Notes: generated from the sequence alone by a model not told the origin. A stretch of DNA of 64,000 bases from a bacterium (GCA_029210965.1 JARGFZ010000007.1:27052-91051), one strand, 5' to 3'. Counted from the stretch's first letter, positions 1,377 through 41,663 are shown. Numbers and translations are program-made.

Positions 1377-1384
1377 CCGGATCT

Positions 1385-3058: not shown

Positions 3059-4449
3059 AAGGCAGCAAAAAGGGACGGATCATGGTCGTGGATGACGAGC
3101 GGTCCATGAGGGAGATGCTTGAGATCTTTCTGGGCAGGGAGGGGTATGAGGTGGCGGGGTATTCCCTGGCTGGTGATGCCCTCGCTTGCCTTGTTGAGGA
3201 CCAGGGTTTCGATCTTATTATCACCGATATCAACATGCCGGGACTCACCGGTCTGGATCTCCTGAAGTCTGTCAGCCAGTTGGAAAAGGATATCCCTGTC
3301 CTCATGATAACCGCGTACGGTTCTCCTGATTCGGCCGTTGAAGCCATGAAGCTCGGCGCGGTTGACTATATTACCAAGCCGTTCCGCATAGAGGAGATCA
3401 AGGCCCGCATCAGCGCCGCCGTGGAGCGCAGGAAACTGGCTGTGGAGAACGTTGAACTCCACCGTCTTCTCGATCAGCAGTTCGGGTTCGAGAACATTGT
3501 GGGTAAGAGTACGGGGATACAGAGGATATTTGAGATAATCCGCAGGGTCGGCCCCATGGACAGCACGGTGGTTGTCTCCGGTGACAGCGGAACGGGTAAA
3601 GAGCTCATAGCGAGGGCGCTTCATCACCACGCCGGGGGAAGGAAGGGGCCCTTCGTCTCGGTGAACTGCGGCGCCCTGGTGGAGACTCTTCTGGAGAGCG
3701 AACTGTTCGGCCATCGTAAAGGTTCCTTTACAGGAGCCGATTCCGACAGGCGCGGCCTGTTCGAGACCGCAACGGGAGGGACTCTGTTTTTAGACGAGAT
3801 CACGGAGACCTCCACCAGCCTCCAGGTAAAGCTGCTTCGAGCAATTCAGGAGCGGGAGGTGGTCCCTGTGGGCGGCACAACGCCCGTCAATGTTGATGTA
3901 AGGATCATTGTAGCCACGAACCGTGATCTTGCCGGGGAGGTTGAGGCTGGCAGGTTTCGGGAGGACCTTTACTACAGGATCAACGTTATCCACATTCAGA
4001 TCCCGCCCTTAAAGGAGCGCAGCGGAGATATTCCCCTGCTCGTGGAGCATTTCCTGGGTCGTCTGGGGGATCGCCAGGGAAGGACCTTTACCTCAGTCAC
4101 ACCCGAAACCATGAAGCGCCTCGTGGAGTACAGCTACCCCGGGAACGTGCGGGAACTGGAAAACATCGTGGAAAGGGCTGTTGCCCTGGGGGAAGGTGAT
4201 TCCTTCACAATGGACCTTCTTCCAGATGAAGTGCTGCGGGCGCAGGCCAGCAGGAGCTACCCCGAAGTGCCGCTGGGGGAAGGGCAGGACCTCGATTCTC
4301 TTCTGGAAGATTACGAGAGACGGCTCATTGAATCAGCGATCGATCAGACAGGGGGGAACAGGACAAAGGCCGCTGAGGTCCTTGGAGTATCTTTCCGGTC
4401 CCTGCGCTACCGTCTCAAGAAATACGGTTGGGCCGATGAAGAGACGTAA
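3055..4449 (+). CDS. pilR: Sigma-54-dependent response regulator PilR (REC, AAA+ and Fis-type HTH domains)
   Basis: It has a REC domain with conserved Asp ('LIITDINMPG'), a Walker A motif 'GDSGTGKE', the GAFTGA variant 'GSFTGA' and a C-terminal HTH ('KAAEVLGVSFRSLRYRLKKYG'). Confidence 0.9.
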   Translation: MKGSKKGRIMVVDDERSMREMLEIFLGREGYEVAGYSLAGDALACLVEDQGFDLIITDINMPGLTGLDLLKSVSQLEKDIPVLMITAYGSPDSAVEAMKLGAVDYITKPFRIEEIKARISAAVERRKLAVENVELHRLLDQQFGFENIVGKSTGIQRIFEIIRRVGPMDSTVVVSGDSGTGKELIARALHHHAGGRKGPFVSVNCGALVETLLESELFGHRKGSFTGADSDRRGLFETATGGTLFLDEITETSTSLQVKLLRAIQEREVVPVGGTTPVNVDVRIIVATNRDLAGEVEAGRFREDLYYRINVIHIQIPPLKERSGDIPLLVEHFLGRLGDRQGRTFTSVTPETMKRLVEYSYPGNVRELENIVERAVALGEGDSFTMDLLPDEVLRAQASRSYPEVPLGEGQDLDSLLEDYERRLIESAIDQTGGNRTKAAEVLGVSFRSLRYRLKKYGWADEET

Positions 4450-4481
4450 GAGGACACCTTGCTGACACTTTTTGTCACCCG

Positions 4482-4514
4482 AAAAGCCCGGTTTCAATTG
4501 CCGGGCTTTTCTTT
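4482..4514 (+). terminator. Rho-independent terminator after pilR
   Basis: There is a hairpin ('AAAGCCCGG-tttcaattg-CCGGGCTTT') followed by a TCTTT run, 30 nt past the pilR stop. Confidence 0.6.
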
Positions 4515-4583
4515 AATCGAAAAAAATTACATAATTACAGTGGTTTACAGTTGGTAAAGAAATTATTGGCATTTTTTTCGATT

Positions 4584-4599
4584 TGGCACGGCCTATGCA
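4584..4599 (+). promoter_or_regulatory. Sigma-54 (-24/-12) promoter of pilA
   Basis: The sequence is TGGCAC-GGCCT-ATGCA, giving GG-N10-GC spacing that matches the RpoN consensus TGGCAC-N5-TTGCW. It lies about 60 nt upstream of the pilA ATG, and the enhancer-binding protein PilR is encoded immediately upstream. Confidence 0.7.
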
Positions 4600-4657
4600 A
4601 AATACCGGGACAAGAAAACATTTAACCAACAAACCCTTGAAAATGGAGGAGAAAAAA

Positions 4658-5083
4658 ATGTTAATGAAAATGAGAAGTACCCAAAAAGGTTTCACCCTGA
4701 TCGAGCTGATGATCGTTGTGGCGATCATCGGCATCCTGGCGGCTATCGCCATCCCTAACTTCCTTGACCTGAAGGACAAGGCGATCTTCGGTACTGCCAA
4801 GGCCAACGTGGACGTCCTGCGCTCGGTGCTGGCCTCCTACGCTGCCGATTCCCCCACCAACAGGTATCCGACCGCACTCACTTACGCTGACCTCAGTACG
4901 CCGGGAGGACTCCTCCCTGAGGCGAACCTTCCCACCCAACTCACGGACGCCAAGTGGACTACCTTCTCTTATACCAGTCCTAACGGTACGAGCTTCAATA
5001 TCGTAGTGACGGCGAACAACAGGGCCCCGGATCTGATTTACGGATCCCCCTCGGGCATTACGCCCAATGCCTATCCCCACTAA
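4658..5083 (+). CDS. pilA: Major type IVa pilin PilA, 141 aa as a prepilin
   Basis: GGAGGA lies 6 nt upstream of the ATG at 4658. The leader 'MLMKMRSTQKG' is followed by the class III signal 'FTLIELMIVVAIIGILAAIAIPNF', with Gly at -1, Phe at +1 and Glu at +5. The mature protein has no cysteine and a Ser/Thr/Pro-rich C-terminal third. Confidence 0.9.
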   Translation: MLMKMRSTQKGFTLIELMIVVAIIGILAAIAIPNFLDLKDKAIFGTAKANVDVLRSVLASYAADSPTNRYPTALTYADLSTPGGLLPEANLPTQLTDAKWTTFSYTSPNGTSFNIVVTANNRAPDLIYGSPSGITPNAYPH

Positions 5084-5165: not shown

Positions 5166-6965
5166 ATGGTAAAAGGACGGGGTGTTCCGGTTTTACTTCT
5201 TATATTCGTGCTGGTATTAAGACCCCATATGGCGGGTGGTGCCTACCCCTTTGCTCAGGGGCTTTTTCTGGTCCCGGTCCTTGTGGGGCTTGCCCTGCTT
5301 TTGCTTTCTTCGTTAGCGACCAAAGATATCCCTGAAGGGTACTTCCCGGTATTGCTCCTGCCCTGGAGCCTCCTGCTCTGGTCTCTTATCACTCTTTTCT
5401 GGGCGCCCGACCCGGGGCAGGGATTGAGGGAGATAATTGCTTTTTTTGGAAACCTTACTGTTTTTTTCATGACTTTTCTGCTCATACGTAAAGAGAAGGA
5501 ATTTGAGATCGGATCGCTCCCTGTCCTTGGTTTAATTGTGACCCCTGTTCTTGCAAGCGCTTTTTACCAGCGGGTATTTGGCTTAGGGAAAATCCGTGAA
5601 ACCCTTCGACATTTGGAGACTTCGGGCGAGGATGTGGTCGACCTGGCCCAGATCGTTAGCCAAAACAGGGTGTTCGCTGGTTTTCTCAACCCAAATATGT
5701 TGGCCGGATTTCTGGCCATTGGGGTTTGTTTAACCCTGGATCTACTTCTGACCGCCTCCGACAGGAGACGCTTTCTTTTTTTCACTTTTCTGACGGTGGC
5801 GCAGGGCGCGGTCCTTGTTCTTACCGGATCCATCGGTGGGAGTATGGTTGCTGTGGTCATGGCGGGGGGCGTTCTTTTAGTGCGGCGAAGGTTTAAGCTC
5901 AGGGAGATGGTTCTTGCCGGTGGGGTTGTCGTCCTGATAACGGCTGGACTTCTTGCCATTCGAGGGGAAAATTTCCTGTCTGGTCCTGAAAATTCAATCC
6001 TCCAGCGGGGTGGGTACATGGCCGCAGGAATCCGAATGGCGCTTATCCACCCGGTTCTGGGTTGGGGCTCAGGATCCAGTCCAGGAGCCCTCATGGGTTT
6101 TGTGGCCGAGGGAGTGAGGCCTGTGGCTGACCCTCACAACTTTCTGGTGCGGACCTGGATCTCCTGGGGACTGCCCGGGCTATTATTTCTGGTTGCTTTT
6201 CTGTCCCTGTGGCTTAAGTCTATCGTAGACTTCTTCAGGGTCAAGGGCGTTCGGATGGTTCCTCCGGGATATGCGGGCTTTGTTTTCGGGAGCATGGCCT
6301 TTTTAGGACATAGCCTGCTTGACATGGATTTTTTTGTACCCGAGACAGCGCTATTTGGATGGTGTGTCCTCGGGGCCGCCCTGGGATTGGCTGGCGCTAA
6401 CGATAAGAGTGCCATTACCGGGAAAGCAGAATCCCATAACGGTTTCACTCTTACAATGGGCGCGGTAGCCCTGGTTATGGTCCTGCCCGTGTTCGTTTTT
6501 TTTCAGGGTGAATCCCTCGCTTTTCGCGCCGGCAAGGCCGTAGCGGAAGGTGAGTTTGAGGAGGGAGCTCACCTTTACAAAGACGCAAGGGCCATGCTTC
6601 CCATGAACGGGAGGTTCGCCCTCGATGAAGGTCGTGCCCGATATGCAGCAGGTGAGACGGATCTGGCCAATGAACTCTTCCGGAAGGCAGACTCCCTCAT
6701 GCGGGCCAGTCCCTATCCATCCTGGGAAATAGGGCGTGCGGCCCAGACGGCTGGAAAATGGCAAGGTTCCATCCCTCCACTTGAAACGGCTCTTTTGAGA
6801 TATAAAACCTCGCCGAGAATCAGGATCGATCTTGCGAGGGCGTACCTTAACCTGGGAGATTCCGGCCAGAGCTACAGGCTCCTTGAAGAGGTGCGGCGTA
6901 TGTCAATGTTCGATCCACAGGCCCGGGATCTTGCCGATGAGATCCTTTCGAGAATGGATCTATGA
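5166..6965 (+). CDS. O-antigen ligase (Wzy_C)-like polytopic membrane protein with a C-terminal TPR-like tail, candidate pilin O-oligosaccharyltransferase
   Basis: It has at least 10 TM helices, a periplasmic-loop motif 'DPHNFLVRTWISWGLPG' that resembles the WaaL/PglL/TfpO H-N-x-x-L signature, and a C-terminal soluble TPR-like region ('IDLARAYLNLGDSGQSYRLLEEV'). It lies directly downstream of pilA. Confidence 0.65.
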   Translation: MVKGRGVPVLLLIFVLVLRPHMAGGAYPFAQGLFLVPVLVGLALLLLSSLATKDIPEGYFPVLLLPWSLLLWSLITLFWAPDPGQGLREIIAFFGNLTVFFMTFLLIRKEKEFEIGSLPVLGLIVTPVLASAFYQRVFGLGKIRETLRHLETSGEDVVDLAQIVSQNRVFAGFLNPNMLAGFLAIGVCLTLDLLLTASDRRRFLFFTFLTVAQGAVLVLTGSIGGSMVAVVMAGGVLLVRRRFKLREMVLAGGVVVLITAGLLAIRGENFLSGPENSILQRGGYMAAGIRMALIHPVLGWGSGSSPGALMGFVAEGVRPVADPHNFLVRTWISWGLPGLLFLVAFLSLWLKSIVDFFRVKGVRMVPPGYAGFVFGSMAFLGHSLLDMDFFVPETALFGWCVLGAALGLAGANDKSAITGKAESHNGFTLTMGAVALVMVLPVFVFFQGESLAFRAGKAVAEGEFEEGAHLYKDARAMLPMNGRFALDEGRARYAAGETDLANELFRKADSLMRASPYPSWEIGRAAQTAGKWQGSIPPLETALLRYKTSPRIRIDLARAYLNLGDSGQSYRLLEEVRRMSMFDPQARDLADEILSRMDL

Positions 6966-8839
6966 CCGGTACGGCCCAGCCGCTGGCAAAATCCACCGCA
7001 TTCCTGCCAGAAAAGTCCTTGAGGGCGGTTGATGTCGCTCTGAGCTCCGCTGTGCTTCTCATCCCCTTCATCAGTTGGGGTGAAGTCCCGTGGCTCCTGG
7101 GCCCCTTTGTCCTTCTTGTCGCGGGTGTGCTCCTGGCTGTAATACGGGAAGGATCGATCAGAGGAAGTGTCCAGATCCCTGAGGCCCCTTTCTGGATCCC
7201 GCTTGCCATAGTGTTGGGCCTCTCCCTTAGCCATCTCGTCCGCACTCCGGTACCCTACAGCAGCTTCCTGTTCCTGGTCCACCTGGCCCTTGCGTCGGTA
7301 TTTTTCTACCTTCTCTGGTCGCGGCCAAGGAAGGTGGCCGTTATGGCCATGGTCCTGGTGTGGACCGGCATCCTGGTGACCTGGGTCGCGGTCCAGGCAC
7401 TGGTTCTGGGGATGCGTCCCCCTGCTGGTCCTTTCCCCAACCCCAACTATACAGCGACCGTTCTCCTGGTCTGTCTGGCCATGGCCCTGGGATCTCTCAT
7501 GCCGTCCCGAGAGCGGAAATGGGAAACGGCTGTTATGTTGTCGGCGGCGATGCTCGGTTCCGTCGGCCTCATGCTCATCGGATCGCGATCGGGCGGGCTG
7601 GGGATGATCCTGCTGTGGGCGGGTTATCTCATCTTCAGGAGAGGGCACATGCGCTGGGTGGCGATACTGGTGATTGCCATGATCATCCTTCTTCCCAGCA
7701 CGATCCGGCACCGGGTCACCGAAGGCTACAAGGCCGACCCACACGCCTTTTCCAGGCTCCTGATATGGGGATCGTCCCTCCGGATGGGTGCGGACCACCC
7801 TTTGATCGGTGTGGGCCCCAACCTTTTTTACGAATACGCCCCTGTTTACGCCTTTCCCACTGAGGAACTGCCGGTGCGCTATGGCCGGATCGCCAGAAAA
7901 CCCCACAACGAATACCTGAGGAGCTGGGCCGAGGGGGGTGTCATCGGTGTGATCGGCTTGGGCTTGTTTCTTTTCATTACGCTGCGAATGATGCTCCATT
8001 CGATCAACCTAGGCAGACCGGGACCGGCCCTGGCGGTGGGTATCATCCTTTACCAGGCCCTTTTCCACGATATCACTGAGGTGTTTTCCCTCATGGTGCT
8101 CATGGCCTGGTGTCTCGCGCAGATAACCCCTGAAACTGACCGAACGGTAGAGTCTGGTAATGGACCAAGGCGCTTTATTCCTGTCGCCACAGGTGTGGTG
8201 ATCCTTTGTTTTGCCCTCTGGCTCAACCTGGATCTGGCATCGAGAGCCTTCTGGTTCCAGGGCAAGAGACTTATGGACGTCGACCTGCCGGGTGCGCTCA
8301 AGGCGACGAAGGCTGCCACACTTATAAATCCCCTTCTCCCCGGCGCGTCGAGGGACCTGGCGCAGATCCGCCTGATGATGAGCGACCAGAACACCGATGA
8401 GCAGGAGTTGAGCCGGGTTTTGGCCGCCATTCTCAGGGCCCAGAGCCTCAACCGTCTGGACACCGTGCCCCCCAGACTGCAAGCTGCCATCTACATCAAA
8501 GCGGCCAGGCAGGGTGAAATGAAGGCTGCCGGGGCACTCGCCGCGGCTGCCGGGAAATTGAAGGAGGCTTCGCTTATTGAACCGCACAACGCGCTCATCT
8601 TGCTGAACATGGCTGAGGTGTATTGGGACCTCGGACAGCGTGAAAGGGCTCTGGACCTGCTGGATAATGCCCTGCGTGAAGAACCCAACTACCTTCAAGC
8701 CCACCGGACCAGGATATCCTGGTTGTCAAAACTGGATCCCGGCCGGATAACATGGGCCCAAAGCGAACTGGCAAAGGCAAAGGAAAGGGGGGCAGGGTAT
8801 CGGCCCCAGGGCGATTATGAAGAGATAATACTAAGATAG
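6962..8839 (+). CDS. Second O-antigen ligase (Wzy_C)-like membrane protein with a C-terminal TPR domain
   Basis: It is polytopic and carries the canonical O-antigen-ligase motif 'RKPHNEYLRSWAEGGVIGVIG'. A C-terminal TPR region of about 200 aa is present ('LLNMAEVYWDLGQRERALDLLDNALREEPNY'). Its start overlaps the stop of the previous gene. Confidence 0.7.
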   Translation: MTGTAQPLAKSTAFLPEKSLRAVDVALSSAVLLIPFISWGEVPWLLGPFVLLVAGVLLAVIREGSIRGSVQIPEAPFWIPLAIVLGLSLSHLVRTPVPYSSFLFLVHLALASVFFYLLWSRPRKVAVMAMVLVWTGILVTWVAVQALVLGMRPPAGPFPNPNYTATVLLVCLAMALGSLMPSRERKWETAVMLSAAMLGSVGLMLIGSRSGGLGMILLWAGYLIFRRGHMRWVAILVIAMIILLPSTIRHRVTEGYKADPHAFSRLLIWGSSLRMGADHPLIGVGPNLFYEYAPVYAFPTEELPVRYGRIARKPHNEYLRSWAEGGVIGVIGLGLFLFITLRMMLHSINLGRPGPALAVGIILYQALFHDITEVFSLMVLMAWCLAQITPETDRTVESGNGPRRFIPVATGVVILCFALWLNLDLASRAFWFQGKRLMDVDLPGALKATKAATLINPLLPGASRDLAQIRLMMSDQNTDEQELSRVLAAILRAQSLNRLDTVPPRLQAAIYIKAARQGEMKAAGALAAAAGKLKEASLIEPHNALILLNMAEVYWDLGQRERALDLLDNALREEPNYLQAHRTRISWLSKLDPGRITWAQSELAKAKERGAGYRPQGDYEEIILR

Positions 8840-8873
8840 TTTCGGGTTTCATGTTTCAGGTTTCAAGTTTGAC
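8839..8873. repeat. Heptamer tandem repeat (GTTTCNN) x5
   Basis: The sequence reads GTTTCGG GTTTCAT GTTTCAG GTTTCAA GTTTGAC. It starts at the stop of the second ligase-like gene and runs into repeat-element copy 1. Confidence 0.6.
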
Positions 8874-9029
8874 AGGGTCGCAAAAAGTCCATCATTGGCT
8901 TTTTGCTCCTCGGAAAGCGAAAAGTGTCATTTTCCCTTTCCTTACAAATAAGTGACTTACACCCGCAGTCATTGATTTGGGCGCCCATACGGGGCGCTTT
9001 GCTGGACTTTTTGCGAGTCCATCAAGTTT
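8867..9029 (+). repeat. Copy 1 of a roughly 165-bp multi-hairpin intergenic repeat element
   Basis: It is about 85% identical to 14802..14966 in the same orientation. It begins 'GTTTGACAGGGTCGCAAAAAGTCC...' and contains several internal palindromes ('GCAAAAAGTCC-loop-GGACTTTTTGC', 'GGAAAGnGAAAAG...TTTTCCCTTTCC', 'GGGCGCCC...GGGGCGC', 'GACTTTTTGCGAGTC'). Confidence 0.75.
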
Positions 9030-9062
9030 TGGGCTTCAAAATACAATATCCAGGATCAAAGA

Positions 9063-9098
9063 ACCAGGATCTAAAAATGTATCATCCTGGATTTTTTT
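9063..9098 (+). terminator. Candidate rho-independent terminator downstream of the ligase-like genes and repeat copy 1
   Basis: The stem 'CCAGGAT/ATCCTGG' is followed by T7 ('...ATCCTGGATTTTTTTAT'). Confidence 0.45.
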
Positions 9099-9434
9099 AT
9101 CTAAATGTACCAGATGTTCAGAAGAAAAGCGGACCCCCTCTTCCTTTTTATCCCGTTCCTTCCCTATCTACGCCCCCACCTCTGCAAGTAGAACATAACG
9201 GGGAACAGGAAAGCGGTTCCCAACATCTACAGGGTTCGGTTGCTGAAGGGGACGATCTCCAACAGCCAGGGCTCGCGGTAGTTGGGAGGCAAGGCTACGA
9301 GAGGGAAGAACTCCCAGGTCAGATAAGGGTAGAAAACCTTCATGGCCGCGATTCCGTCTGGTGCGTAGGTCTATTTGATGTTGTATTTTACCAGAGTCGA
9401 AGTTCTCCGTGGTAAGAGATGGCGGTGGTAAGGT

Positions 9435-10355
9435 TCACTCTATTCCCTTGTGCAGGAGGCGCCACAGCCTGTTTTCCATTGCCCCCAAAAGTGCTCTGGG
9501 CTGAATAGCGAACCGCCTGGCCTTGTAATAATATCTGAGGAACGCCCGGTCTAAAAGGTTTCGGTCGCGTCCCGTGAAATCCCGGAACACAGCGTTCACT
9601 TCTTCCCCCCGATGGCGGCCCACTTCTCCGGACCCCGTGAGCCCTTCGCTGTGAACCCTGAAAGCGGAAAGGAAATCCGGGATCCGTCTGGAGTTGGCAC
9701 CCGCCGCATGCATCCTGTAAAAAAGGTCGTAATCCATGGCGTATCGGTAGAGTTTCAGGCCACCGATCCTGTGAAACAGATCAGTCCTCCAAAGGGCGGA
9801 CTGCTGATGGATGATGATGTTGATCTCGTAGATGAAATCCCGGATGTCGAAATCGATTGTGTGCACACGTTTGGTGACTCGATCATCCACGTCCACTTCA
9901 ACCTGATCGCCGTAGACGAGGTCGGTTTCGGGATCATCCATGAAAGCCCGGGCCATTTTATACAGAGCGCCGGGGAGGAGGAGGTCGTCGGAGTTGATCC
10001 ACGTCATACAGGCGCCGGTGGCCTTACCTGCACCCTGGTTGATGGCGTCGCTCTGCCCGCGATCGGGTAAGGTATGCCAGTAGGCGAGGCGTCTTTCATA
10101 TTTCCTGATGATGTCGACGCTGCCGTCGGTGGAACCGCCATCGATGACGATGTGTTCAAGGTTAGGATAGTCCTGGTTGTGGATGGAAAGGATGGTCCTC
10201 TCCAGAAAAGCGGCCTGATTGTAGGATGGAGTGATGACCGAGATCCTTGGCCACGCAGCGTCGGATTTAGGAGAAGCCTCCGGGTCGAAACGTGGTGATT
10301 TAATGAATTCCCTGATCTCGCGGGTGATCTTCCTGCTGACCGGTAGAAAATCCAT
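9435..10355 (-). CDS. Family 2 glycosyltransferase
   Basis: This is a 306-aa ORF on the minus strand. The GT2 N-terminal signature 'VITPSYNQAAFLERTILSIHNQDYPNLEHIVIDGGSTDGS' and the DxD-type motif 'WINSDDLL' are present. Confidence 0.85.
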   Translation of the reverse strand: MDFLPVSRKITREIREFIKSPRFDPEASPKSDAAWPRISVITPSYNQAAFLERTILSIHNQDYPNLEHIVIDGGSTDGSVDIIRKYERRLAYWHTLPDRGQSDAINQGAGKATGACMTWINSDDLLLPGALYKMARAFMDDPETDLVYGDQVEVDVDDRVTKRVHTIDFDIRDFIYEINIIIHQQSALWRTDLFHRIGGLKLYRYAMDYDLFYRMHAAGANSRRIPDFLSAFRVHSEGLTGSGEVGRHRGEEVNAVFRDFTGRDRNLLDRAFLRYYYKARRFAIQPRALLGAMENRLWRLLHKGIE

Positions 10356-10698
10356 CAGGGTGTATCCAGGCTTTCAATCTTCATGGACATTTTCATCCTT
10401 TCCAGGGTCTTGTCCAAAGGGTGAAGGGAACCAGCAGGACCGCAGTATAATCCGTTGGTTTGTGTTGGTGGAAAATGGACCGCAATGTGGCACTCACCAC
10501 TTTTCACTTCTGCCACCGATAGTGACTATTTTTATGTTGGAAAGGTCAGTTTTGTCGGCTATACTACGAAAAATAGTCATAGTGCTGGTCTGTACCTTAC
10601 CATGTTTCTTTTATATCTGACCCTGATGAGTGGATACGGAAGTATAAGGGAAAGATCGGAAGGCGGTCAACAACGTTACGGATTTTCGAGGTTCATGC

Positions 10699-12645
10699 AT
10701 GTGCGGCATAGGGGGAATCTACCGCAGAGGTCAGATCCCGCCTGCCCACAGTTCCCTTCTGGAGGCTATGGCCGACGCCCTGGCTCACAGGGGACCTGAT
10801 GGCCGAGGGACCTGGAGCGATCCTCCATCTGGCATCGGTTTGTGTCACACGAGACTGGCCGTTCTGGACCTCAGTCCCAGGGGCGCCCAACCCATGACCG
10901 ATGTCGACGGCAGGGGATGGATCGTTTACAACGGTGAGGTTTATAACTATGGTGCGCTCCGGCAGGAACTTGAAGGGCTCGGCTGCCGGTTCATGAGCGA
11001 AACGGACTCTGAGGTGGTCCTTGTAGCCTGCCTTACCTGGGGCGTCGAGGAAGCCCTCGACAAGTTTTTGGGGATGTTCGCCTTTGCTCTCTGGATCCCC
11101 GGAGAATCGGCCCTCTACCTTGTACGTGACCGGATGGGAATCAAGCCTCTCTATTACGGGTGGGCCGGTGATGACCTGGTCTTCGGTTCCGAGTTAAAGG
11201 CCCTTTGTGTTCATCCAGGTTTTACCAGGACAGTAGACCCCAGAGCTCTTGAGCTGTTCCTCATGCTCCAGTATATCCCCTCTCCCGGAACGATCTATAC
11301 CGATGCCCGCAAGCTGCCGCCAGGTCATTTCATACGGCTGGATCCGGAAGGGGAGACTCTGGTGGCCTGGTGGGACCCCTATCATGTCCATAATGAGACT
11401 GAGTGGATGGGAAGCGGATCTGCCGTTCTGGAACTGTCCGGGCTCCTGGACGATTCGGTGCATCGCCGTCTTGTGTCGGACGTTCCACTTGGAGCCTTTC
11501 TGTCCGGGGGGATGGACTCGGGACTGGTGGTCGCCGCCATGGGCAGAACGGGAGTGAGTTCTCCCTCCACCTTCACTGTTTCCTACGCTGAGGACGATTA
11601 CGATGAAGGGCCCATGGCTGCGGATGTGGCCGGATATCTGGGCACCAGGCACCACCAGGTGAAGATCGACAGCCGCACTCTCCTTGACCGGATATTTGAT
11701 CTCCCACAGATCTTCGATGAGCCTCTCAGCGATCCGTCGGCCCTCCCCATGATCGTGCTGTCACGCCTCGCCCGTGAGCACGTCACCGTTATTCTCAGCG
11801 GTGACGGCGGGGATGAACTCTTCGGCGGTTATGACAGGTACCGGGCCGTTGACGGCTACCTGAACCGTTTTGCCGGTTTATCTCCATTCATAAGGCGGTC
11901 TGCCGCCGCCATCATGGCCGGGATCCCCTCAAGGTCCCTGGCCCGAGCCAACAGTTTCCTGAAGAAGGTATCCGGTAGGGCTCCCGTGGAGAATTTCCCG
12001 GGAAAGTGGGAAAAACTCCTCAAGCTTATCGTTCAAAATGACCCTGCCTCAGCCTACCAGACATCCATCGGGATATTTTCGGCCGCCGAAGCCGGTGAGG
12101 CCCTCGGAGGACAAAAAGTTCCCGCCCTTCCGGACGCTTTCCTGTCATGCCTTAACGGGCCATCCAATAGTTCGTTCATACGCCGGATGATGGATCTGGA
12201 CACCAGGACCTTTCTCGCCGATGACGTTCTGGCCAAAGTGGACAGGGCCAGCATGGCATCAGGACTGGAGGTCAGGGTTCCTCTCCTGGATCACAGGATT
12301 GTCCAGTGGAGCAGGAGGGTGGATGATGAAGACCTGTTTGAGGGGAGTCAAGGCAAGGCGCCCCTCAGGCGGTTGGCCCGGAGGGACCTTCCCGCGCATA
12401 TTGCCAACCGGCCGAAGATGGGTTTCACGATGCCCCTGGATTCATGGCTGCGAGGGGAGCTTCGGGAGCTAATTAATCAGTATCTGGGAACAGGTTCGAG
12501 GGTGCTGGAGAACTATTTTGATCTTGGTTATGTGAACCGGCTGGTACGGGAGCACCTGACAGGTCAGAGCAACCATCACGAAAAACTCTGGAACCTCCTC
12601 GTTTTCGCACTGTGGGAAGAAAAGTGGAAACCGGCAGCCGCATAG
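10699..12645 (+). CDS. asnB: Asparagine synthetase B-type glutamine amidotransferase, common in polysaccharide loci
   Basis: The N-terminal 'MCGIGGI' has the class-II glutaminase Cys2. The PP-loop 'SGGMDSG' is present (residues 'FLSGGMDSGLVVAAM'). Confidence 0.88.
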   Translation: MCGIGGIYRRGQIPPAHSSLLEAMADALAHRGPDGRGTWSDPPSGIGLCHTRLAVLDLSPRGAQPMTDVDGRGWIVYNGEVYNYGALRQELEGLGCRFMSETDSEVVLVACLTWGVEEALDKFLGMFAFALWIPGESALYLVRDRMGIKPLYYGWAGDDLVFGSELKALCVHPGFTRTVDPRALELFLMLQYIPSPGTIYTDARKLPPGHFIRLDPEGETLVAWWDPYHVHNETEWMGSGSAVLELSGLLDDSVHRRLVSDVPLGAFLSGGMDSGLVVAAMGRTGVSSPSTFTVSYAEDDYDEGPMAADVAGYLGTRHHQVKIDSRTLLDRIFDLPQIFDEPLSDPSALPMIVLSRLAREHVTVILSGDGGDELFGGYDRYRAVDGYLNRFAGLSPFIRRSAAAIMAGIPSRSLARANSFLKKVSGRAPVENFPGKWEKLLKLIVQNDPASAYQTSIGIFSAAEAGEALGGQKVPALPDAFLSCLNGPSNSSFIRRMMDLDTRTFLADDVLAKVDRASMASGLEVRVPLLDHRIVQWSRRVDDEDLFEGSQGKAPLRRLARRDLPAHIANRPKMGFTMPLDSWLRGELRELINQYLGTGSRVLENYFDLGYVNRLVREHLTGQSNHHEKLWNLLVFALWEEKWKPAAA

Positions 12646-13805
12646 GGGTTCTTCATGTCATCAGCGGCCTTGGTCTGGGAGGAGCCGAGAGGATGCTCGT
12701 GTGGTCAGCCAGATATCACGACCGGAACCTGATCAGGATGGGTGTGGTAAGCCTCATGTCCGGTGGTGAACTTGCCGACGAGATCCTCAGGGAGGATGTT
12801 GAGGTATATGAACTGGGACAGGCCAGGGGCAGGCTATCACCCTCCTCCTTTACCAGACTGATGAACATTACCAAGGAGTTTGATCCCCAGGTCATTCAGG
12901 GGCACATGTATCACTCCAACCTTCTGGTGCGGATCGCGGGCGGGTTGAGACGACAGACAAGGGTGTTGAGCACGAGACATATTGATCTTGCTTCCCCTGC
13001 CAGACGGTTCATAAACGGGGCCACCGGGTTTTTAAACGACGGCACCCTTGTTTTCTCCCAGAAGGTGCTCGATGAGGAAAGAAAGGAGAACCTGTTTCGA
13101 CGCTCCATAAAATTAGTTCAGTACGGGGTCGAGATACCGGATCGTCAAGACGCTGATCGCGAGCCGGGAGAGGCGTTGGAGGACGAGGGAAGGGGCGAAC
13201 TGAGAGAGGACCTGAAAATCCCCCCGGATGCTTTTGTCTGGACGGCAGTGGGCCGGCTATCAAGGCAGAAGGGTTTTGCCTGTCTGATCGATGCTTTTTC
13301 CAAAATAGAGAACCTCGGTGAGGGCTCCTTCCTGCTCATCGTAGGTGATGGAGAGGACAGGGGAATGCTGGAGGACCGGGCAAGGGAGAAAGGGGTAGAC
13401 CAAAGGGTTATCTTCGCCGGGTTCAGGCCTGATACGATGCCCCTTCTGGGCATTTCCGATGCTTTCGTCCTGTCGTCCCTGTGGGAGGGAGGTCCTCTGG
13501 TGATCCTGGAGGCTATGGCCGCCGGTCTTCCCGTTGTATCAACGCGGGTCGGGGATGCTGCATCCATGGTGACGGAAGGTGTGACCGGCACCCTGGTGGA
13601 ACCAGGGGATGCCGGACAGCTTGCCGAGGCCATGAACCAGGTCCAGAGTATGGGGTCTGACATCCGTGAGTGGGGCCTCAGGGGGCGCCGCAGGGTTGAG
13701 GAACATTATGATTTCAGGCGTGTGCAAGGGGAGATGGAAACCTACTATCAGGAGCTTGCCGGTGTCACCGGGCCGGTACAGAAACGGGGGATCAGTCCTG
13801 GATGA
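12612..13805 (+). CDS. Family 1 (GT4-type) glycosyltransferase
   Basis: It has the GT-B fold signature 'VLSSLWEGGPLVILEAMAAGLPVVSTRVGD', an E-X7-E-like motif. The start overlaps the asnB 3' end, so the true start may be a downstream GTG or ATG. Confidence 0.85.
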   Translation: MGRKVETGSRIGVLHVISGLGLGGAERMLVWSARYHDRNLIRMGVVSLMSGGELADEILREDVEVYELGQARGRLSPSSFTRLMNITKEFDPQVIQGHMYHSNLLVRIAGGLRRQTRVLSTRHIDLASPARRFINGATGFLNDGTLVFSQKVLDEERKENLFRRSIKLVQYGVEIPDRQDADREPGEALEDEGRGELREDLKIPPDAFVWTAVGRLSRQKGFACLIDAFSKIENLGEGSFLLIVGDGEDRGMLEDRAREKGVDQRVIFAGFRPDTMPLLGISDAFVLSSLWEGGPLVILEAMAAGLPVVSTRVGDAASMVTEGVTGTLVEPGDAGQLAEAMNQVQSMGSDIREWGLRGRRRVEEHYDFRRVQGEMETYYQELAGVTGPVQKRGISPG

Positions 13806-14800
13806 TTATTAAATACACCTTCACCTTTATCGTTTCTCTGGGCGCCGTTCTTGCTCTCACGCCATGGATGGCAAGGACTGCCAAAGACATCGGGATCGTT
13901 GACAGACCGGACGGAGATTTGAAAAATCATCCTGAACCCGTACCCTACATGGGGGGGCTTGCCGTTTTCGTGGCATTTCTTATTGGCTTTTCTCTCTTCT
14001 ACGAACTGGACAAGCAGATGCTTGCCATATTGCTGGGAGGAACCCTTATCGTGCTCCTGGGTTTTTTAGACGATATCGGGAACCTGGGGCCCGCCACCAA
14101 ACTTCTGGGACAGGTTCTTGCGGTCCTCATCGTAATGAAGGCGGGTATAGCCATCAAGATAGTCTTCCTTCCTCTTTATATTACATATCCGCTGTCTTTC
14201 CTCTGGCTCATGGGGATGACCAACGCCTTTAACATTATCGACATCATGGACGGCCTCTCCTCGGGCGTGGGCGCGATAGCATGTGTCTTCCTCTTCATCG
14301 TGGCACTTTCCTCGGGACAGGCAGGTGTAGCCCAAATGGTCCTTGCTCTCATGGGCGCACTCATCGGTTTCCTCAGGTTCAATTATCACCCGGCCAGAAT
14401 ATATCTGGGTGATGCCGGCAGTTTGTTCATCGGTTTCATGCTGGGTGCTCTGGGAATGGTGGGGATATATGCCAGAGTGAACCCCGTGGCTGTTTTAGCT
14501 CCCATATTCATTCTGGGGGTGCCTGTTTTCGACACCCTTTTTGTCATGATGGTTCGGTGGAAGCGCGGGCTTAATCCTCTGAAGGGGAGCCCGGACCACT
14601 TTGCCCTGCGGCTCCGGAGGTGGCGCCTTACAGTGTCTCAGACAGTTATTTTGAGTTACGGGGTCTCATTTTTAATGGGAACTGTAGCTTTGATCATGGT
14701 GTACGGTAATGAACAGACCGCTGTCGGCGCTCTGCTTACAGTAAGCCTTGGCATGATGCTGTCGGCCCTGTGGTTGTGGAAGATAGACGGAAACCTTTAA
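13802..14800 (+). CDS. Polyprenyl-phosphate sugar-1-phosphate transferase (WecA/MraY-like), an initiating glycosyltransferase
   Basis: There are 10-11 TM segments. The N-terminal motif 'DIGIVDRPDGDLKNHPEPVPYMGG' and the 'NAFNIIDIMDGL' DD-type motif are typical of WecA/WbpL/MraY. Confidence 0.85.
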   Translation: MIIKYTFTFIVSLGAVLALTPWMARTAKDIGIVDRPDGDLKNHPEPVPYMGGLAVFVAFLIGFSLFYELDKQMLAILLGGTLIVLLGFLDDIGNLGPATKLLGQVLAVLIVMKAGIAIKIVFLPLYITYPLSFLWLMGMTNAFNIIDIMDGLSSGVGAIACVFLFIVALSSGQAGVAQMVLALMGALIGFLRFNYHPARIYLGDAGSLFIGFMLGALGMVGIYARVNPVAVLAPIFILGVPVFDTLFVMMVRWKRGLNPLKGSPDHFALRLRRWRLTVSQTVILSYGVSFLMGTVALIMVYGNEQTAVGALLTVSLGMMLSALWLWKIDGNL

Positions 14801-14801
14801 C

Positions 14802-14966
14802 GTTTGACAGGGTCGCAAAAAGTCCGATCCGGGACTTTTTGCTCCACGGAAAGGGAAAAGCGTCGTTTTCCCTTTCCTCACAGATCAATGACTTACGGTG
14901 TAAGTCATTGATCCGGGCGCCCCGCGTGGGGCGCGTTGATGACTTTTTGCGAAGTCATCAACGTTT
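14802..14966 (+). repeat. Copy 2 of the roughly 165-bp multi-hairpin repeat element
   Basis: It aligns end to end with 8867..9029 and begins 1 nt after the stop of the WecA-like gene. Hairpin stems are conserved, while loops and some stem positions carry paired substitutions. Confidence 0.75.
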
Positions 14967-14973
14967 AGGAGGA

Positions 14974-16977
14974 ATGATCCTGTCTGTGGATGATAGCAGC
15001 CGCCAAAAGTTAAGGAGTTTTTCCAGCCCGGTAGTCCTGGCCGCCCTTATCCTCCTACTCCTTGTAGTGGGAAAGGAGGTCATGTTCCCGGTGAGGGTCA
15101 TGGTGTGGCACGTTAGTGCCCTCTTGTGGTGGTTGACCGTCTCGGCTGCCTGTCTGGGGCAGGGTGCCTTTTGGTTCAAGGTGCTGGGGGGTGAAAAGCT
15201 GTTACTGCCTCCGGGTATGGTCATCAGCGTCATTATGGGGCTCGGTCTGGGGGCCATGTCGATGGAAGTTCTGGTATTGGCCGCATTGGGGCTCATGAAC
15301 ACACCCGCTCTGACGATACTGGTTCTCCTGGTCCTCATCCAGTCAATGCTTTTCGGAAGAAAGTTCGTATTTGCAGCTGTTAGAAGCGCGTCGCGGGACG
15401 CTTCCCGGCGGGCAAAGGAGGCTGTCCTTCCCCTTGGGATGGTCCTTATTTCCGCTGTGATCTCCTTTCCAATTGTCCTGGTGCCTACAAGGGCTTTCGA
15501 CGCCCTGAGTTATCATCTCGAGGTGCCGCTTCGTTTTCTCCAGGCTGGCGGTATGGTCAACATTCCCGAGAACCTCTACTCCTATTCACCACTCCTGACC
15601 CAGATGCTTTACGGACTGGGGATGGGACTTGTGGGTGCTGATCTTGCCGGTCTTTTTTATTACCTGTTTTTTATCCTTACTATCTGGACGATCTGGAGCG
15701 GTGGCGAAAAACTTTTCGGCAACCTGGGGGCCGCCTGGGCTGCGGCTCTCCTGGCGCTTACCCCCGTATTCCTGGTGGAGGTTCCCCAGACCGGCGCCGA
15801 CTGGTCCATGACCTTTTTCCTGCTTGCGGCCCTGTTCCTGGTCACTCGCGAGGAACGGGACGTAAAGCAAATGGTCCTGGCCGGGATCCTGGCAGGGATG
15901 GCGGCGGGCTGTCGCCATCAGGCGCTGGGCTATGCCATTGTCCTGATCCCCGCAGCCGGTCTCGCTACGGATCTTTTCAAAAGACGTACCGGTATTATAA
16001 GATGTTGGTCAGTTTTCGTGCTGTCTTCAATGGTTTCAACGGCTCCGTGGTACCTGAAAAACCTGGTCCAGACCGGCGACCCCCTCTACCCGCTTCTAAG
16101 TTCCATAACAGGAAAACTTGGCCACAACATTGACTTCGTGGATTCCTTTGTAGGTTCAAGGTCCACAGATCTTCTCTGGTCCTGGATAATGGTGCCCTAC
16201 CAGGCTACCTTCGATCCGATGAGGCTGAGCATGACCGCTACTATCGGGATCCTGCCCATCGCCCTCGTCTTGCTGCTGCCGTTTGTTAAAAAGAAACAAG
16301 GTGGCAGTGCCTTTCTTCTGCTCTGGGTTCTGCTGTCTTTTGTCGCGTGGCACCTGACTTTCCGAACTTTCCGTTACGCCATGCCGATGATGGTCGTGGG
16401 CTATCTCTGGCTGGGTGCGCTCCTTGCCCACATTGCCCGTGGAAATGGTTTCAGGGCGAATGTTTTGAAGGTTGTTGTTTCCGTTTCCCTTATCGCCAAT
16501 GCAGGGGTGTTTCTGGGACTTTTCGATTACACAAATAAAAGCATAGATGCCGCCCTGGGAACCAGGTCTCCCGAGCGGTACCTCACGGAGACATATGAGA
16601 TCTATCCGGCCATAAATTTCCTGAACCGGATCGATCCGCCGCCTGGCAGGGTTCTTTTTCTCGGTGAAATGAGGGGGTTTTATTCAAGATTTTCCAGGGA
16701 AGTGCCGTCCCACAACGCTCCCAACCGTCTCCTGGAAATGGTTAAACGGGGTGAATACCCCGAGCAAATGGTACAGGAACTCAAGAATGCCGGGTTTACC
16801 CACATCCTCTTTAACCCCGCGGAGTGGGAGAGAATGGCCTACGGGAACCGGAACGCCCCGCTGTGGGTACTCACGGCTCTGGAAAAAGAGGCACTTGATT
16901 CCATGTTAAGGGGGCAGACGGACCGTGTCTTCGCCGCCAACGGGGTCAGTGTTTACAGGATCCGAAATGAGTATTGA
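14974..16977 (+). CDS. Large polytopic membrane protein, paralog A; GT-C-like or uncharacterized transmembrane glycosyltransferase candidate
   Basis: The track ORF 14770..16977 starts inside the repeat element. I place the start at the ATG at 14974, just after AGGAGG, although the spacing is short and this is uncertain. The N-terminal two-thirds has roughly 12-14 TM helices, and a soluble domain of about 200 aa follows. It shares conserved blocks with the next gene ('F(F)DA(M/L)(T/S)YHLE', 'YPAINFLNRIDPPPGRVLFLGEMRGFYSRFSREV', 'AGFTHILFN'). Confidence 0.55.
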   Translation: MILSVDDSSRQKLRSFSSPVVLAALILLLLVVGKEVMFPVRVMVWHVSALLWWLTVSAACLGQGAFWFKVLGGEKLLLPPGMVISVIMGLGLGAMSMEVLVLAALGLMNTPALTILVLLVLIQSMLFGRKFVFAAVRSASRDASRRAKEAVLPLGMVLISAVISFPIVLVPTRAFDALSYHLEVPLRFLQAGGMVNIPENLYSYSPLLTQMLYGLGMGLVGADLAGLFYYLFFILTIWTIWSGGEKLFGNLGAAWAAALLALTPVFLVEVPQTGADWSMTFFLLAALFLVTREERDVKQMVLAGILAGMAAGCRHQALGYAIVLIPAAGLATDLFKRRTGIIRCWSVFVLSSMVSTAPWYLKNLVQTGDPLYPLLSSITGKLGHNIDFVDSFVGSRSTDLLWSWIMVPYQATFDPMRLSMTATIGILPIALVLLLPFVKKKQGGSAFLLLWVLLSFVAWHLTFRTFRYAMPMMVVGYLWLGALLAHIARGNGFRANVLKVVVSVSLIANAGVFLGLFDYTNKSIDAALGTRSPERYLTETYEIYPAINFLNRIDPPPGRVLFLGEMRGFYSRFSREVPSHNAPNRLLEMVKRGEYPEQMVQELKNAGFTHILFNPAEWERMAYGNRNAPLWVLTALEKEALDSMLRGQTDRVFAANGVSVYRIRNEY

Positions 16978-20179: not shown

Positions 20180-21336
20180 GCCGGATCCCTGTGGTACACG
20201 TTATAACCAAACTGGAGTTCGGCGGCGCCCAGCAGAACACCCTGTATACAGTAGCTTCTCTGGATCGGGAGCGCTTCGAACCGGTTCTCATGACGGGCCC
20301 CGGTGGTTATCTCATGCCTGAGGCCCTGGACCTGGACCTGGACCTGAGGGTTGTGTCCAACATGGAGCGTGCCCTGAGACCGGGTGTCGATGGGGCGGCC
20401 TACAGGGAATTGGGCAAACTTCTCGAACCCTACCGGGGCCGACCGGCTATCGTTCACACTCACAGCTCCAAGGCGGGCATCCTGGGCCGCTGGGCTGCCC
20501 GTAAGAACCGTGTCCCGGTTATCATCCACTCCATCCACGGGTTCGGTTTCACCCCGGCACAAAGTCCTCCAAAACGATTTCTCTTCCAGACGGCAGAGCG
20601 TCTTACCTCCCGCATCACCGATCATTTTATCGCCGTGTCCGAATCCAACCGTAAAGATGGGGCACGCCTGGGTCTTTTCAGCCCGGAGCGGTGCACCCTT
20701 ATCAGATCGGGTTTCGACCTTGACCGGTTCCTCCGTGCCCAACCGGTCAAGCCCGATCTCCTTCTTGATCTGGGTATCCCTCACGGATCACCCCTCGTTC
20801 TCATGGTTGCCTGTTTAAAGCCCCAGAAGGCTCCCCTCGATTTTGTCAATCTGGCTGCCCTGGTGCATCGTGACTTTCCGGAAGTCAGATTCCTGCTTGC
20901 AGGTGACGGGGAACTGAGAGGAACCCTTCTTGCAGAGGTGGACCGCCTGGGGCTGAAAGGTGTTTTTATAGCTCCGGGATGGCGTGAGGATATTCCCGAG
21001 CTCATGAAGAGCAGCCGCGTCGTTGTCCTTACCTCGAGATGGGAGGGGCTCCCGAGGGTGATACCCCAGGCCAAGGCGGCTGCCCGTCCGGTAGTAGCTG
21101 CCGCCGTTGACGGTTCCGTTGAGGCCATAAGGGAAGGTGTGGACGGGTACCTCTGCCCCCCCGGGGATGTGGACTCCATGGCCCAAAGGGTGATCTGTCT
21201 CCTGAAAGACCAGGGCCTGGCCGATCGCATGGGCCGGGAAGGGAACCGGGTAGTGGACGAATGGGACCAGGACCAGATGGTGAGGAAGCAGGAGGAGCTC
21301 TACGAGCGACTCCTCAGAGAAAAGAACATATGGTGA
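20176..21336 (+). CDS. Family 1 (GT4-type) glycosyltransferase
   Basis: The N-terminus 'PVVHVITKLEFGGAQQ' and the C-terminal block 'VVLTSRWEGLPRVIPQAKAAARPVVAAAVDGSVE' are typical of GT-B retaining glycosyltransferases. Confidence 0.85.
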   Translation: MSRIPVVHVITKLEFGGAQQNTLYTVASLDRERFEPVLMTGPGGYLMPEALDLDLDLRVVSNMERALRPGVDGAAYRELGKLLEPYRGRPAIVHTHSSKAGILGRWAARKNRVPVIIHSIHGFGFTPAQSPPKRFLFQTAERLTSRITDHFIAVSESNRKDGARLGLFSPERCTLIRSGFDLDRFLRAQPVKPDLLLDLGIPHGSPLVLMVACLKPQKAPLDFVNLAALVHRDFPEVRFLLAGDGELRGTLLAEVDRLGLKGVFIAPGWREDIPELMKSSRVVVLTSRWEGLPRVIPQAKAAARPVVAAAVDGSVEAIREGVDGYLCPPGDVDSMAQRVICLLKDQGLADRMGREGNRVVDEWDQDQMVRKQEELYERLLREKNIW

Positions 21337-21446
21337 ACAGTGAATAGTGAAAAGTGAACGGTCAAGACATGTATTGACGAGGAGTTATTAAGATCAGGTT
21401 GTTTTAGATTAACACTCTTCACACTTCACGGTTCACTATTCACAGC
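21333..21446. repeat. Intergenic inverted repeat built from (GTGAAYR)n heptamers
   Basis: The left arm is 'GTGAACAGTGAATAGTGAAAAGTGAACG' and the right arm is 'CTCTTCACACTTCACGGTTCACTATTCACAG', its reverse complement, with a loop of about 55 bp. It lies between the GT1 stop and pilD. Confidence 0.6.
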
Positions 21447-23965: not shown

Positions 23966-24041
23966 ATGGTGAACAGTGAACGGTAACAGCGGAAAAGTTT
24001 TAGTGTTTATTCGGTTCATTTTTCACGATTCACGATTCACC
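23954..24041. repeat. Intergenic (GTGAACR)n inverted repeat
   Basis: The left arm is 'GTGAACAGTGAATGGTGAACAGTGAACGG' and the right arm is 'GGTTCATTTTTCACGATTCACGATTCACC'. Confidence 0.6.
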
Positions 24042-24084
24042 TGTTATTTTGAATTTTGAAACTGAACTCACAGGACGGTGATTT

Positions 24085-25458: not shown

Positions 25459-25460
25459 CA

Positions 25461-25518
25461 GAATGTAGAACGCAGAATGTAGAACGCAGAATAAACGGAT
25501 CACGGTTCACTGTTCACG
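25461..25518. repeat. Tandem 14-mer (GAATGTAGAACGCA)x2 plus a (TTCACNG) palindrome
   Basis: 'GAATGTAGAACGCAGAATGTAGAACGCAGAAT' is followed by 'CACGGTTCACTGTTCACG'. It lies immediately after the response regulator stop. Confidence 0.55.
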
Positions 25519-41659: not shown

Positions 41660-41663
41660 AAAC

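Follow-up and report, generated by a model that had tools for sequence, protein, structure and literature searches.

The 64,000-nucleotide stretch of bacterial DNA analyzed here (GCA_029210965.1, JARGFZ010000007.1:27052-91051; the whole stretch is called the window) carries on its + strand two copies of a hairpin-rich repeat, at 8865-9029 (copy A) and 14799-14966 (copy B) when their flanking duplications are included. The copies stand in the same orientation on either side of a block of glycosylation genes. The question that this locus raises is whether such a pair serves to exchange the genes between its members, encodes a structured RNA, or is simply the trace of a mobile sequence that came to this place twice. 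We find that the two repeats are, with high probability, independent insertions of a new family of MITEs (nonautonomous miniature inverted-repeat transposable elements) of ~154 nt.

An earlier note on this DNA, made from the sequence alone, described two same-strand copies of ~165 bp that are rich in hairpins, and both are present on the + strand. A 23-mer of the repeat 5' end occurs exactly twice in the window, where shuffled sequences lead to an expectation of 0. The likeness of the copies is real, but the identity of 85% given in that note is too high: a global alignment (8867-9029 versus 14802-14966) matches 135 of 167 columns (81%), the cores are 80% identical, and the repeat finder returns an ungapped 105-nt core with 77% identity at an A-B spacing of 5936 nt. 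The longest identical run is 24 nt. The four to five internal palindromes attributed to each copy are borne out, as both contain five. In copy B these are perfect, with stems of 11, 12, 14, 7, and 12 bp, and 54 of 54 stem pairs are Watson-Crick when scored on the reference structure, which was defined on copy B itself. The calculated minimum free energy of this copy is -89.8 kcal/mol as RNA (z = -9.0) and -54.9 kcal/mol as DNA (z = -9.7). In copy A the same five palindromes contain mismatches, the RNA value is -66.5 kcal/mol (z = -6.0), and the predicted fold favors long-range pairing between its two ends.

The repeat is not confined to this locus. An exact search with a 20-mer of the 5' end finds 36 loci in five metagenome-assembled genomes (MAGs) of uncultured bacteria, namely, PFL40, SZUA-204, ZodW_Metabat.265, SZUA-178, and one SRR-derived bin, and a profile built on full-length copies identifies ~45 copies in those MAG loci and only the two in the window. 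A 19-mer scan of metagenomes returned at least 120 contigs, mostly from marine and sediment assemblies; among the metagenome matches listed, 773 kb contain at least 224 nonoverlapping copies, of which 134 are full length. The consensus drawn from 160 unique full-length copies has 161 nt (TTGAtAGGGTCGCAAAAAGTCC…GTTGATGACTTTTTgCGAagtCATCAActtT), begins with TTGAYAGGG, and is bounded by imperfect terminal inverted repeats of 19 nt, GAYAGGGTCGCAAAAAGTC and GATGACTTCGCAAAAAGTC. The 5' end, written as GATAGGGTCGCAAAAAGTC, and the reverse-complemented 3' end GATGACTTCGCAAAAAGTC agree at 15 of 19 positions, with a perfect inner 12-mer. The element is noncoding, as the open reading frames (ORFs) that cross the window copies are spurious overlaps only. 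Copies of the family are confined to intergenic DNA, frequently directly on a stop codon, and many of them lie at the ends of MAG contigs. Copy A is a degenerate member of a subfamily common in PFL40; it is 95% identical to three PFL40 copies (loci L001, L019, and L023) and 78-81% identical to copy B.

Shortened forms of the element occur alongside the full-length one. A minimal hairpin of ~50 nt consists of the two terminal repeats alone, other copies lack hairpins 3 and 4 or lack hairpin 2, and one copy has two ends of the 5' type. The minimal form and the form without hairpins 3 and 4 are joined at an internal direct repeat, GACTTTTTGC, which is shared by the 3' arm of hairpin 1 and hairpin 5; in copy B, too, the GACTTTTTGC of hairpin 5 has its direct repeat in the 3' arm of hairpin 1. 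A distant blastn search of a plasmid collection with copy B gave no match, and neither did a literature search by accession numbers. Five matches in viral contigs were set aside as one chance event, since they share the 19-mer only and lie in the conserved noncoding region of one phage lineage. These contigs (L167-L171, from IMG/VR, and related to one another) hold at this place, for example at L167:5830-6040, a conserved noncoding stretch with GACAGGGTCGCAAAAAGTCGGGC, which is flanked by repeated AATGAGACTG(A/G)GACTCA motifs. Their likeness to the terminal repeat is probably a coincidence.

Flanking sequences indicate how the copies came to their sites. The six bases that precede GAYAGGG recur directly after …CATC, forming a target-site duplication (TSD) with the consensus AAYNTT that is usually preceded by TC. 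An exact 6-mer TSD is found in 34 of 91 copies, where 3.2 are expected and the maximum in 2000 permutations is 10; if one mismatch is allowed, the duplication is found in 50 of the 91, with 18 expected. Hexamers that depart from the consensus, such as TCTTTT, ATTGTT, AGATTT, AATAC, and AAACTT, likewise co-vary on both sides. A 2-bp duplication with ends of the form TTGA…TCAA was considered as well and rejected, because the "AA" and the "T" co-vary with the flank in L005, L008, L002, L027, and L020a.

Relatives of the host supply sites that are filled in one genome and empty in another. The WecA-like protein encoded upstream of copy B has many orthologues, and in the closest of them with context (L162, PFL40 contig JALHUC010000279.1; WecA 86% identical), the next gene follows 24 nt on. 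The spacer of L162 is exactly the window sequence minus the element and one AACGTTT; the empty site reads CTTTAACGTTTAGGAGG, with a single AACGTTT (in longer readings, …AACCTTTAACGTTTAGGAGGAATGATCCTGTCTGTGGATG… and …AACCTTTAACGTTTAGGAGGAATGATCCTGTCTGTGGATGATAGCAGCCGCCAAAAG). This exact empty site identifies copy B as a recent insertion. The element entered at the TAA stop codon of the WecA-like gene, a codon that the left duplication preserved, and just before the next gene's AGGAGG. L038 (84% identical) and L040 (complete genome CP070682.1, 75% identical) likewise have site B empty. The same spacer is occupied in L041 and L165 by a truncated + strand copy and in L039 by a full copy of opposite orientation. 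The spacer matches the preferred target of the family and has been struck independently in at least three lineages (the window; L039, reversed; L041/L165). Site A is without an element in L164 (PFL40; Wzy 94% identical) and in L165. Elsewhere in the locus, the spacer between GT2 and AsnB is occupied in L039, L041, and L165, and a reversed copy follows Wzy in L041. In L039 (JAVVEN010000004.1), a clean terminator-like hairpin, AAAAGCCCACCCGTGCGGATTCGGTGGGCTTTT, stands at 11014-11044 after the WecA-like gene, and the reverse-orientation copy comes after it.

Judged by the MITE-defining features given in PMC10969869, the element is short and noncoding, has terminal inverted repeats and a TSD, exists in many dispersed copies, and shows insertion polymorphism with an empty site. 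The earlier note had offered "MITE or REP-like" (repetitive extragenic palindromic, REP) as one option, and this option is correct, as the family is multicopy and intergenic and has both terminal inverted repeats and TSDs. Many scattered copies, which the same note had named as pointing to a simple REP or MITE, are indeed what the genomes of relatives and the metagenomes contain.

That note had also proposed that the direct repeats allow a cassette to be deleted or swapped, with phase or antigenic variation of a glycan as the possible outcome. The copies are direct and do bracket glycan genes, and gene content at the locus varies: AsnB, a methyltransferase (Methyltransf_24) gene, and the PMT_2 genes (one or two) each occur in some relatives and not in others. 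MITE pairs are, moreover, known as recombination hotspots (PMC10969869). However, each copy retains its own matched and intact duplication (AAGTTT/AAGTTT for A and AACGTTT/AACGTTT for B), from which we conclude that A and B are independent insertions without sign of exchange. They belong to different subfamilies, ranking 64th and 100th of 159 among each other's relatives. With ~80% identity and a longest identical run of 24 nt, A and B make poor RecA substrates. No relative has Wzy joined to PMT_2 through a single hybrid copy, and the common gene order (two Wzy_C/TPR genes, GT2 on the - strand, AsnB, GT1, WecA, and PMT_2) recurs in relatives with one or both copies missing or with copies elsewhere; where relatives differ in the genes of the island, the differences do not follow the repeats. 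Two PFL40 contigs, L012 and L032, have the 3' flank of their elements in common and differ in the 5' flank, as a possible exchange between copies might leave them, but short-read assembly chimeras at repeats explain the pattern equally well. In these contigs (L012:4317-4520 and L032:3734-3940), copies of different subfamilies are followed by identical sequence, AACCTTAGTCCGTTAAGTTTTCCCCTGCG…, and the flanking hexamers are unmatched in L012 and matched in L032, which reflects either an assembly chimera or a real exchange between copies. Considering all of this, it is highly unlikely that A and B recombine, by homologous or site-specific means, to excise or exchange the 5.8-kb module of GT2, asnB, GT1, and wecA.

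A related idea is that the left end of A and the right end of B together moved, or can move, the whole 6.1-kb segment as a composite transposon. Copy A's 5' terminal repeat does form a valid inverted pair with copy B's 3' terminal repeat, and MITE-flanked mobilization has precedent (PMC10969869). Such a unit requires one shared duplication, but the outer flanks differ, with AAGTTT to the left of A and AACGTTT to the right of B. In relatives without copies, the bracketed genes keep their synteny with the surrounding type IV pilus locus, and the exact empty site in L162 lacks B alone, with the genes on both sides present. We regard movement of the segment as a unit as having almost no probability. 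As read from the duplications, the subfamilies, and the gene order, the pair appears neither to have arisen together nor to have recombined, and excision or swapping of the cassette has no support. An integron-type array of attC sites and cassettes was rejected, too; the window encodes no integrase, the copies occur in both orientations and also in housekeeping spacers (after rplQ, L064), and copy B was inserted alone, without a gene.

The rule by which the family inserts can be read from the same flanks. The preferred target is (TC)AAYNTT, with the TC preferred at positions -8 and -7. In the hexamer, 80% of copies have a pyrimidine at position 3, and position 4 has no matching purine bias, which indicates that the target is read asymmetrically and that insertion is oriented. 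The element end …CATC followed by a duplicated AAYNTT rebuilds TCAAYNTT, and this explains both the TC preference and the frequent head-to-tail arrays. We count 23 clear head-to-tail pairs, all of them same-strand and spaced by exactly one hexamer. Array neighbors are on average 85% identical, versus 80% for nonadjacent copies on the same contig; because the neighbors barely exceed this background, most array pairs appear to be separate insertions, and fresh tandem duplication is mostly rejected as the origin of the arrays. The oriented, self-regenerating target is the least ordinary trait of the family. With respect to the genes, the orientation is even: between co-directional genes, 35 copies are sense and 43 antisense (p = 0.43), and 19 and 17 lie in convergent and divergent spacers, respectively.

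The palindromes raise the question of whether they are maintained and, if so, at the level of RNA or DNA. Between A and B, differences are denser in loops, as the earlier note had said (19 of 54 unpaired columns versus 15 of 105 stem columns). Its claim that stems change in pairs holds in part. The hairpin 5 example, GGACT/AGTCC versus TGACTT/AAGTCA, is a real paired register change and a subfamily character, but most stem differences are one-sided and weaken A, and only one pair is a clean double change; 9 of the 14 differing stem pairs score as broken, a count that is inflated by the register shift in hairpin 5. Compensatory variation becomes visible only when the whole family is aligned, rather than A against B alone. 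In 25 copies, 89.5% of stem cells are paired, versus 38-54% when the partners are slid, although these pairing counts use the structure defined on copy B and are biased toward that copy. Stems also vary less than loops (entropy of 0.40 versus 0.78). One pair in hairpin 2 is CG in 103 copies, GC in 28, and TA in 12 across the family, and hairpin 3 has two compensatory pairs, AT/GC (101 and 47) and TA/GC (131 and 16).

Such values could be taken to mean that the hairpins are selected as a functional structured RNA, that is, a cis-regulator or small RNA acting as an mRNA stabilizer, an RNase processing site, or a terminator or insulator between operon genes. The folds are predicted to have very high stability (z = -6 to -9), the stems are more conserved than the loops and include four to five compensatory pairs, the two copies in the window lie in the sense direction of the gene upstream and would share its transcript, and effects of this kind are on record for REP, ERIC, Correia, and BOX elements (PMC2229807, PMC3184786, PMC10969869). 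Against these points stands the symmetry of the signal between the strands. In 8640 stem cells of 160 copies there are 359 G·U and 349 A·C mismatches (45:47 in the 25 copies), so neither strand's RNA is favored; single hairpins depart from this in opposite directions (G·U:A·C of 111:24 in hairpin 1 and 9:80 in hairpin 2), which reflects inherited subfamily changes. The family shows no preference for sense orientation, the DNA strand folds equally well, and the use of copy B as the structure reference biases the pairing counts. The Rfam scan that the earlier note had suggested returned no family, with 0 matches at the gathering score in the whole window and 0 at E<=1 in 8800-15050. A simple scan for terminators and promoters finds no such site in copy B; in copy A it gives one weak site, which is spurious. 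A terminator hairpin after copy A (9053-9102) was considered and dropped, as it is no better than shuffled sequence (z = -1.0). A functional RNA is therefore very unlikely to be what the family represents. The earlier claim that structure is under selection is thus retained for the palindromes across the family, where some selection is seen, but not for an RNA on one strand. The symmetric mismatch and orientation signals fit selection at the DNA level, through transposition competence or symmetric protein binding, and the family alignment suggests that palindromy is maintained in the lineages that give rise to subfamilies.

Several observations weigh against the assignment to a MITE family. 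The 44 ORFs of the window, examined with Pfam, include no transposase, integrase, or RAYT and no Y1_Tnp domain, and ~1 Mb of fetched loci yielded no autonomous element that shares these terminal repeats. The count of two copies refers to the 64-kb window only. The outer 7 nt of the two terminal repeats are unlike (GAYAGGG versus GATGACT; 4 of 7 differ), which is unusual for the ends of DDE elements. A clean duplication is present in only 37-55% of copies. An insertion that is oriented to an asymmetric target is a mark of site-specific or single-strand transposition systems more than of classical MITEs, and the four to five compensatory stem pairs, together with the more conserved stems, point to some selection on structure. 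When 992 ORFs from the ~1 Mb of loci were clustered all-against-all, no multicopy transposase-like family emerged, and solo terminal repeats outside the annotated copies have no adjacent ORF. Loci with the 5' repeat only were considered as a parent insertion sequence and rejected, since they are truncated or minimal copies beside ordinary genes (aroA, rplQ, and rpoA).

Another reading is a REP-like origin, in which the repeats would be REP/BIME-type units (REPINs) spread by a RAYT or an IS200/IS605-like element guided by hairpins in single-stranded DNA. The mosaic of palindromes, the strictly intergenic location, the outer terminal bases that are not inverted repeats, the same-strand head-to-tail arrays, and the oriented insertion at a short asymmetric target resembling the element's own 3' end (TCAAY…) would all be at home in such a system. 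However, from copy to copy the variable positions of the flanking hexamer change together on the two sides, and the empty site has the hexamer only once, which identifies it as a true duplication. REP/RAYT and IS200/IS605 elements are not known to make target-site duplications. The consensus, moreover, has no GTAG-type head and is a 161-nt unit of five palindromes rather than an imperfect palindrome of 20-40 nt, and neither a Y1 nor a RAYT gene is found in the window. A REP-like origin is accordingly highly improbable in our estimation. The unlike outer bases and the oriented insertion nonetheless leave small room for a nonclassical mobilizing enzyme. It is conceivable, though unlikely, that the family is not a passive MITE at all but a site- and orientation-specific element that recreates its own target, has selected palindromes, and is either moved by an unrecognized hairpin-reading or noncanonical transposase or adopted by its hosts as operon punctuation. 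If host adoption were true, the copies would control mRNA processing or translational coupling, for example, in the WecA-like/PMT_2 spacer of a type IV pilin glycosylation island.

For the MITE family that we favor, a transposase encoded elsewhere would move the element, presumably by cut-or-copy movement of the DDE type. Each insertion duplicates ~6 bp at (TC)AAYNTT and recreates a target at the element's own 3' edge. The palindromes would be kept because lineages that still transpose depend on them, whether at the DNA level or through a protein that binds symmetrically, or because copies of this kind are tolerated by hosts. In the window, copy A, located in a 3' untranslated region, and copy B, inside the WecA-like/PMT_2 operon, would be transcribed as stable multihairpin RNA. 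Given these positions, the two copies may have an incidental effect on mRNA decay or translational coupling.

The family is ordinary in kind as a MITE. The Correia elements of Neisseria, QMITE2 of Coxiella, and MITEAba12 of Acinetobacter are likewise noncoding, shorter than 500 bp, and bounded by terminal inverted repeats and short TSDs (PMC10969869), and they, too, exist as dispersed intergenic copies that are present or absent between strains, with transcripts predicted to form very stable stem-loops. We see no sequence relationship between these three and the present family. The TSD here is 6 bp at (TC)AAYNTT, as opposed to TA for Correia and 7-9 bp for QMITE2, and the interior consists of five separate perfect palindromes rather than one long hairpin. 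Unlike them, this family inserts in one orientation relative to its target and regenerates that target, giving head-to-tail arrays; it is not AT-rich, in a host genome of ~55% G+C; and no parent insertion sequence is known for it. The BOX elements of Streptococcus pneumoniae and enterobacterial BIMEs resemble it in their modular hairpin units, in variants of the internal modules, and in sites between genes of a transcription unit, but these units have no regular TSD, and BIMEs are spread by RAYT, whereas the present family has clear TSDs and an exact empty site.

ERIC/IRU elements and REP mRNA stabilizers occupy positions like those of copy B (between co-directional genes) and copy A (in a 3' untranslated region). 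REP and ERIC hairpins in such positions alter mRNA decay. In contrast to them, this family has no orientation bias and no strand-specific wobble signal, which suggests that any effect on mRNA decay is incidental rather than selected. In Acinetobacter, class 1 integrons are flanked by MITEs, so that two direct copies of one family bracket several genes (PMC10969869), as they do here. Those blocks have identical MITEs and one shared duplication; the copies here are ~80% identical, belong to different subfamilies, and have their own duplications, and the genes between them are native to the locus.

The coordinates of the elements and of the genes next to them are collected in Table 1. Around them extends a type IV pilus cluster (168-5083 and 20176-40431). 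Upstream lie pilC, pilS, pilR, a pilin gene (4583-5083), and genes for two Wzy_C/TPR proteins, and downstream are pilD (21498-22325), a giant protein of 1948 residues with an N-terminal pilin methylation motif (26720-32566), pilX, and pilMNOPQ. Beyond the pilus cluster are aro, efp, accBC, and ilv/leu genes. The window is core chromosome. The combination of Wzy_C and TPR domains resembles pilin O-oligosaccharyltransferases of the TfpO/PglL type, and the bracketed genes probably form a native pilin or surface-glycan island of this locus. The host lineage is unclassified. Among the nearest named relatives of its elongation factor P (EF-P), the protein of "bacterium BMS3A…" is 72% identical and those of Deltaproteobacteria MAGs are 65% identical, and the NCBI labels on the genomes that carry copies are "bacterium" or "Proteobacteria bacterium".

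Table 1. Coordinates of the two element copies, their parts, and the adjoining genes, with positions counted from the first nucleotide of the window
Feature	Coordinates	Strand	Remarks
Copy A element core	8871..9023	+	153 nt, GACAGGG…CCATC; nhmmer to family model positions 2-165, E = 1e-49
Copy A terminal inverted arms	8869-8894 and 9000-9025		26 nt, 81% complementary
Copy A left target-site duplication AAGTTT	8865..8870	+	same hexamer at 9024-9029; inside heptamer array 8838-8870
Copy A right target-site duplication AAGTTT	9024..9029	+	
Copy B element core	14806..14959	+	154 nt; nhmmer E = 2e-53
Copy B left target-site duplication AACGTTT	14799..14805	+	overlaps TAA stop codon of WecA-like gene (14798-14800)
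Copy B right target-site duplication AACGTTT	14960..14966	+	adjoined by AGGAGG ribosome-binding site of next gene
Copy B 5' terminal inverted repeat GACAGGGTCGCAAAAAGTC	14806..14824	+	inner 12 nt perfectly complementary to 3' repeat
Copy B 3' terminal inverted repeat GACTTTTTGCGAAGTCATC	14941..14959	+	
Copy B hairpin 1 GCAAAAAGTCC / GGACTTTTTGC	14815..14842	+	5' arm within 5' terminal repeat
Copy B hairpin 2 GGAAAGGGAAAA / TTTTCCCTTTCC	14848..14877	+	
Copy B hairpin 3 GATCAATGACTTAC / GTAAGTCATTGATC	14883..14913	+	
Copy B hairpin 4 GCGCCCC / GGGGCGC	14917..14934	+	98% of cells paired in 25 copies
Copy B hairpin 5 CGTTGATGACTT / AAGTCATCAACG	14934..14963	+	3' arm is 3' terminal repeat plus first TSD bases
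Element-bounding repeats of the family			also written GAYAGGGTCGCAAAAAGTC … GACTTTTTGCGA; 3' consensus GACTTTTTGCGArrTCATC
Wzy_C/TPR protein (O-antigen-ligase / pilin O-glycosylase-like)	6962..8839	+	stop 31 nt upstream of copy A core
Bracketed block	9435..14800		
GT2	9435-10355	-	within bracketed block
AsnB-like	10699-12645		
GT1	12612-13805		
WecA/MraY-family	13802-14800		
PMT_2-family glycosyltransferase	14974..16977	+	ATG 14974, or GTG 14986 annotated in GCA_032251125.1; directly downstream of copy B

Two further kinds of repeat are seen in the window. Heptamer arrays of three to five units occur at 8838-8870, 21333-21358, 23953-24060, 25459-25518, 34282-34312, 41661-41684, 42906-43191, 51729-51958, 56408-56440, 60745-60839, and 62126-62148, and they account for 22 of 54 Tandem Repeats Finder rows. 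The units differ by site, several being variants of GTGAACA/TTCACNG, and 18 of 20 distinct arrays are intergenic in a window of which only ~8% is noncoding. Copy A was inserted into one of these arrays, and runs of hexamers or heptamers also flank elements in relatives (AAGAACT in L039, GATTTGA in L165, and TTGGAC in L018). The arrays resemble the STRR heptamer repeats of cyanobacteria. A 96-nt direct repeat with 73% identity (3936-4031 and 24954-25049) is the AAA+/sigma-54 interaction region of two paralogous genes for NtrC-type response regulators (3055-4449 and 24085-25458) and not a mobile repeat.

The analysis removes cassette switching of a glycan from this locus as unsupported, and its value lies mainly in annotation and caution. 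It defines a repeat family not described before, which abounds in an unclassified lineage of uncultured bacteria from sediment and hydrothermal settings, breaks MAG assemblies, as the copies at contig ends show, and may create chimeric contigs such as L012 and L032. The consensus, the terminal repeats, and the AAYNTT duplication can serve for repeat masking in assembly and binning, for strain typing by insertion site, and for the search for the transposase. Finally, the recurrent insertion after the WecA-like gene provides filled and empty alleles of one operon spacer, and thereby a natural test of the effect of the hairpins on operon expression.

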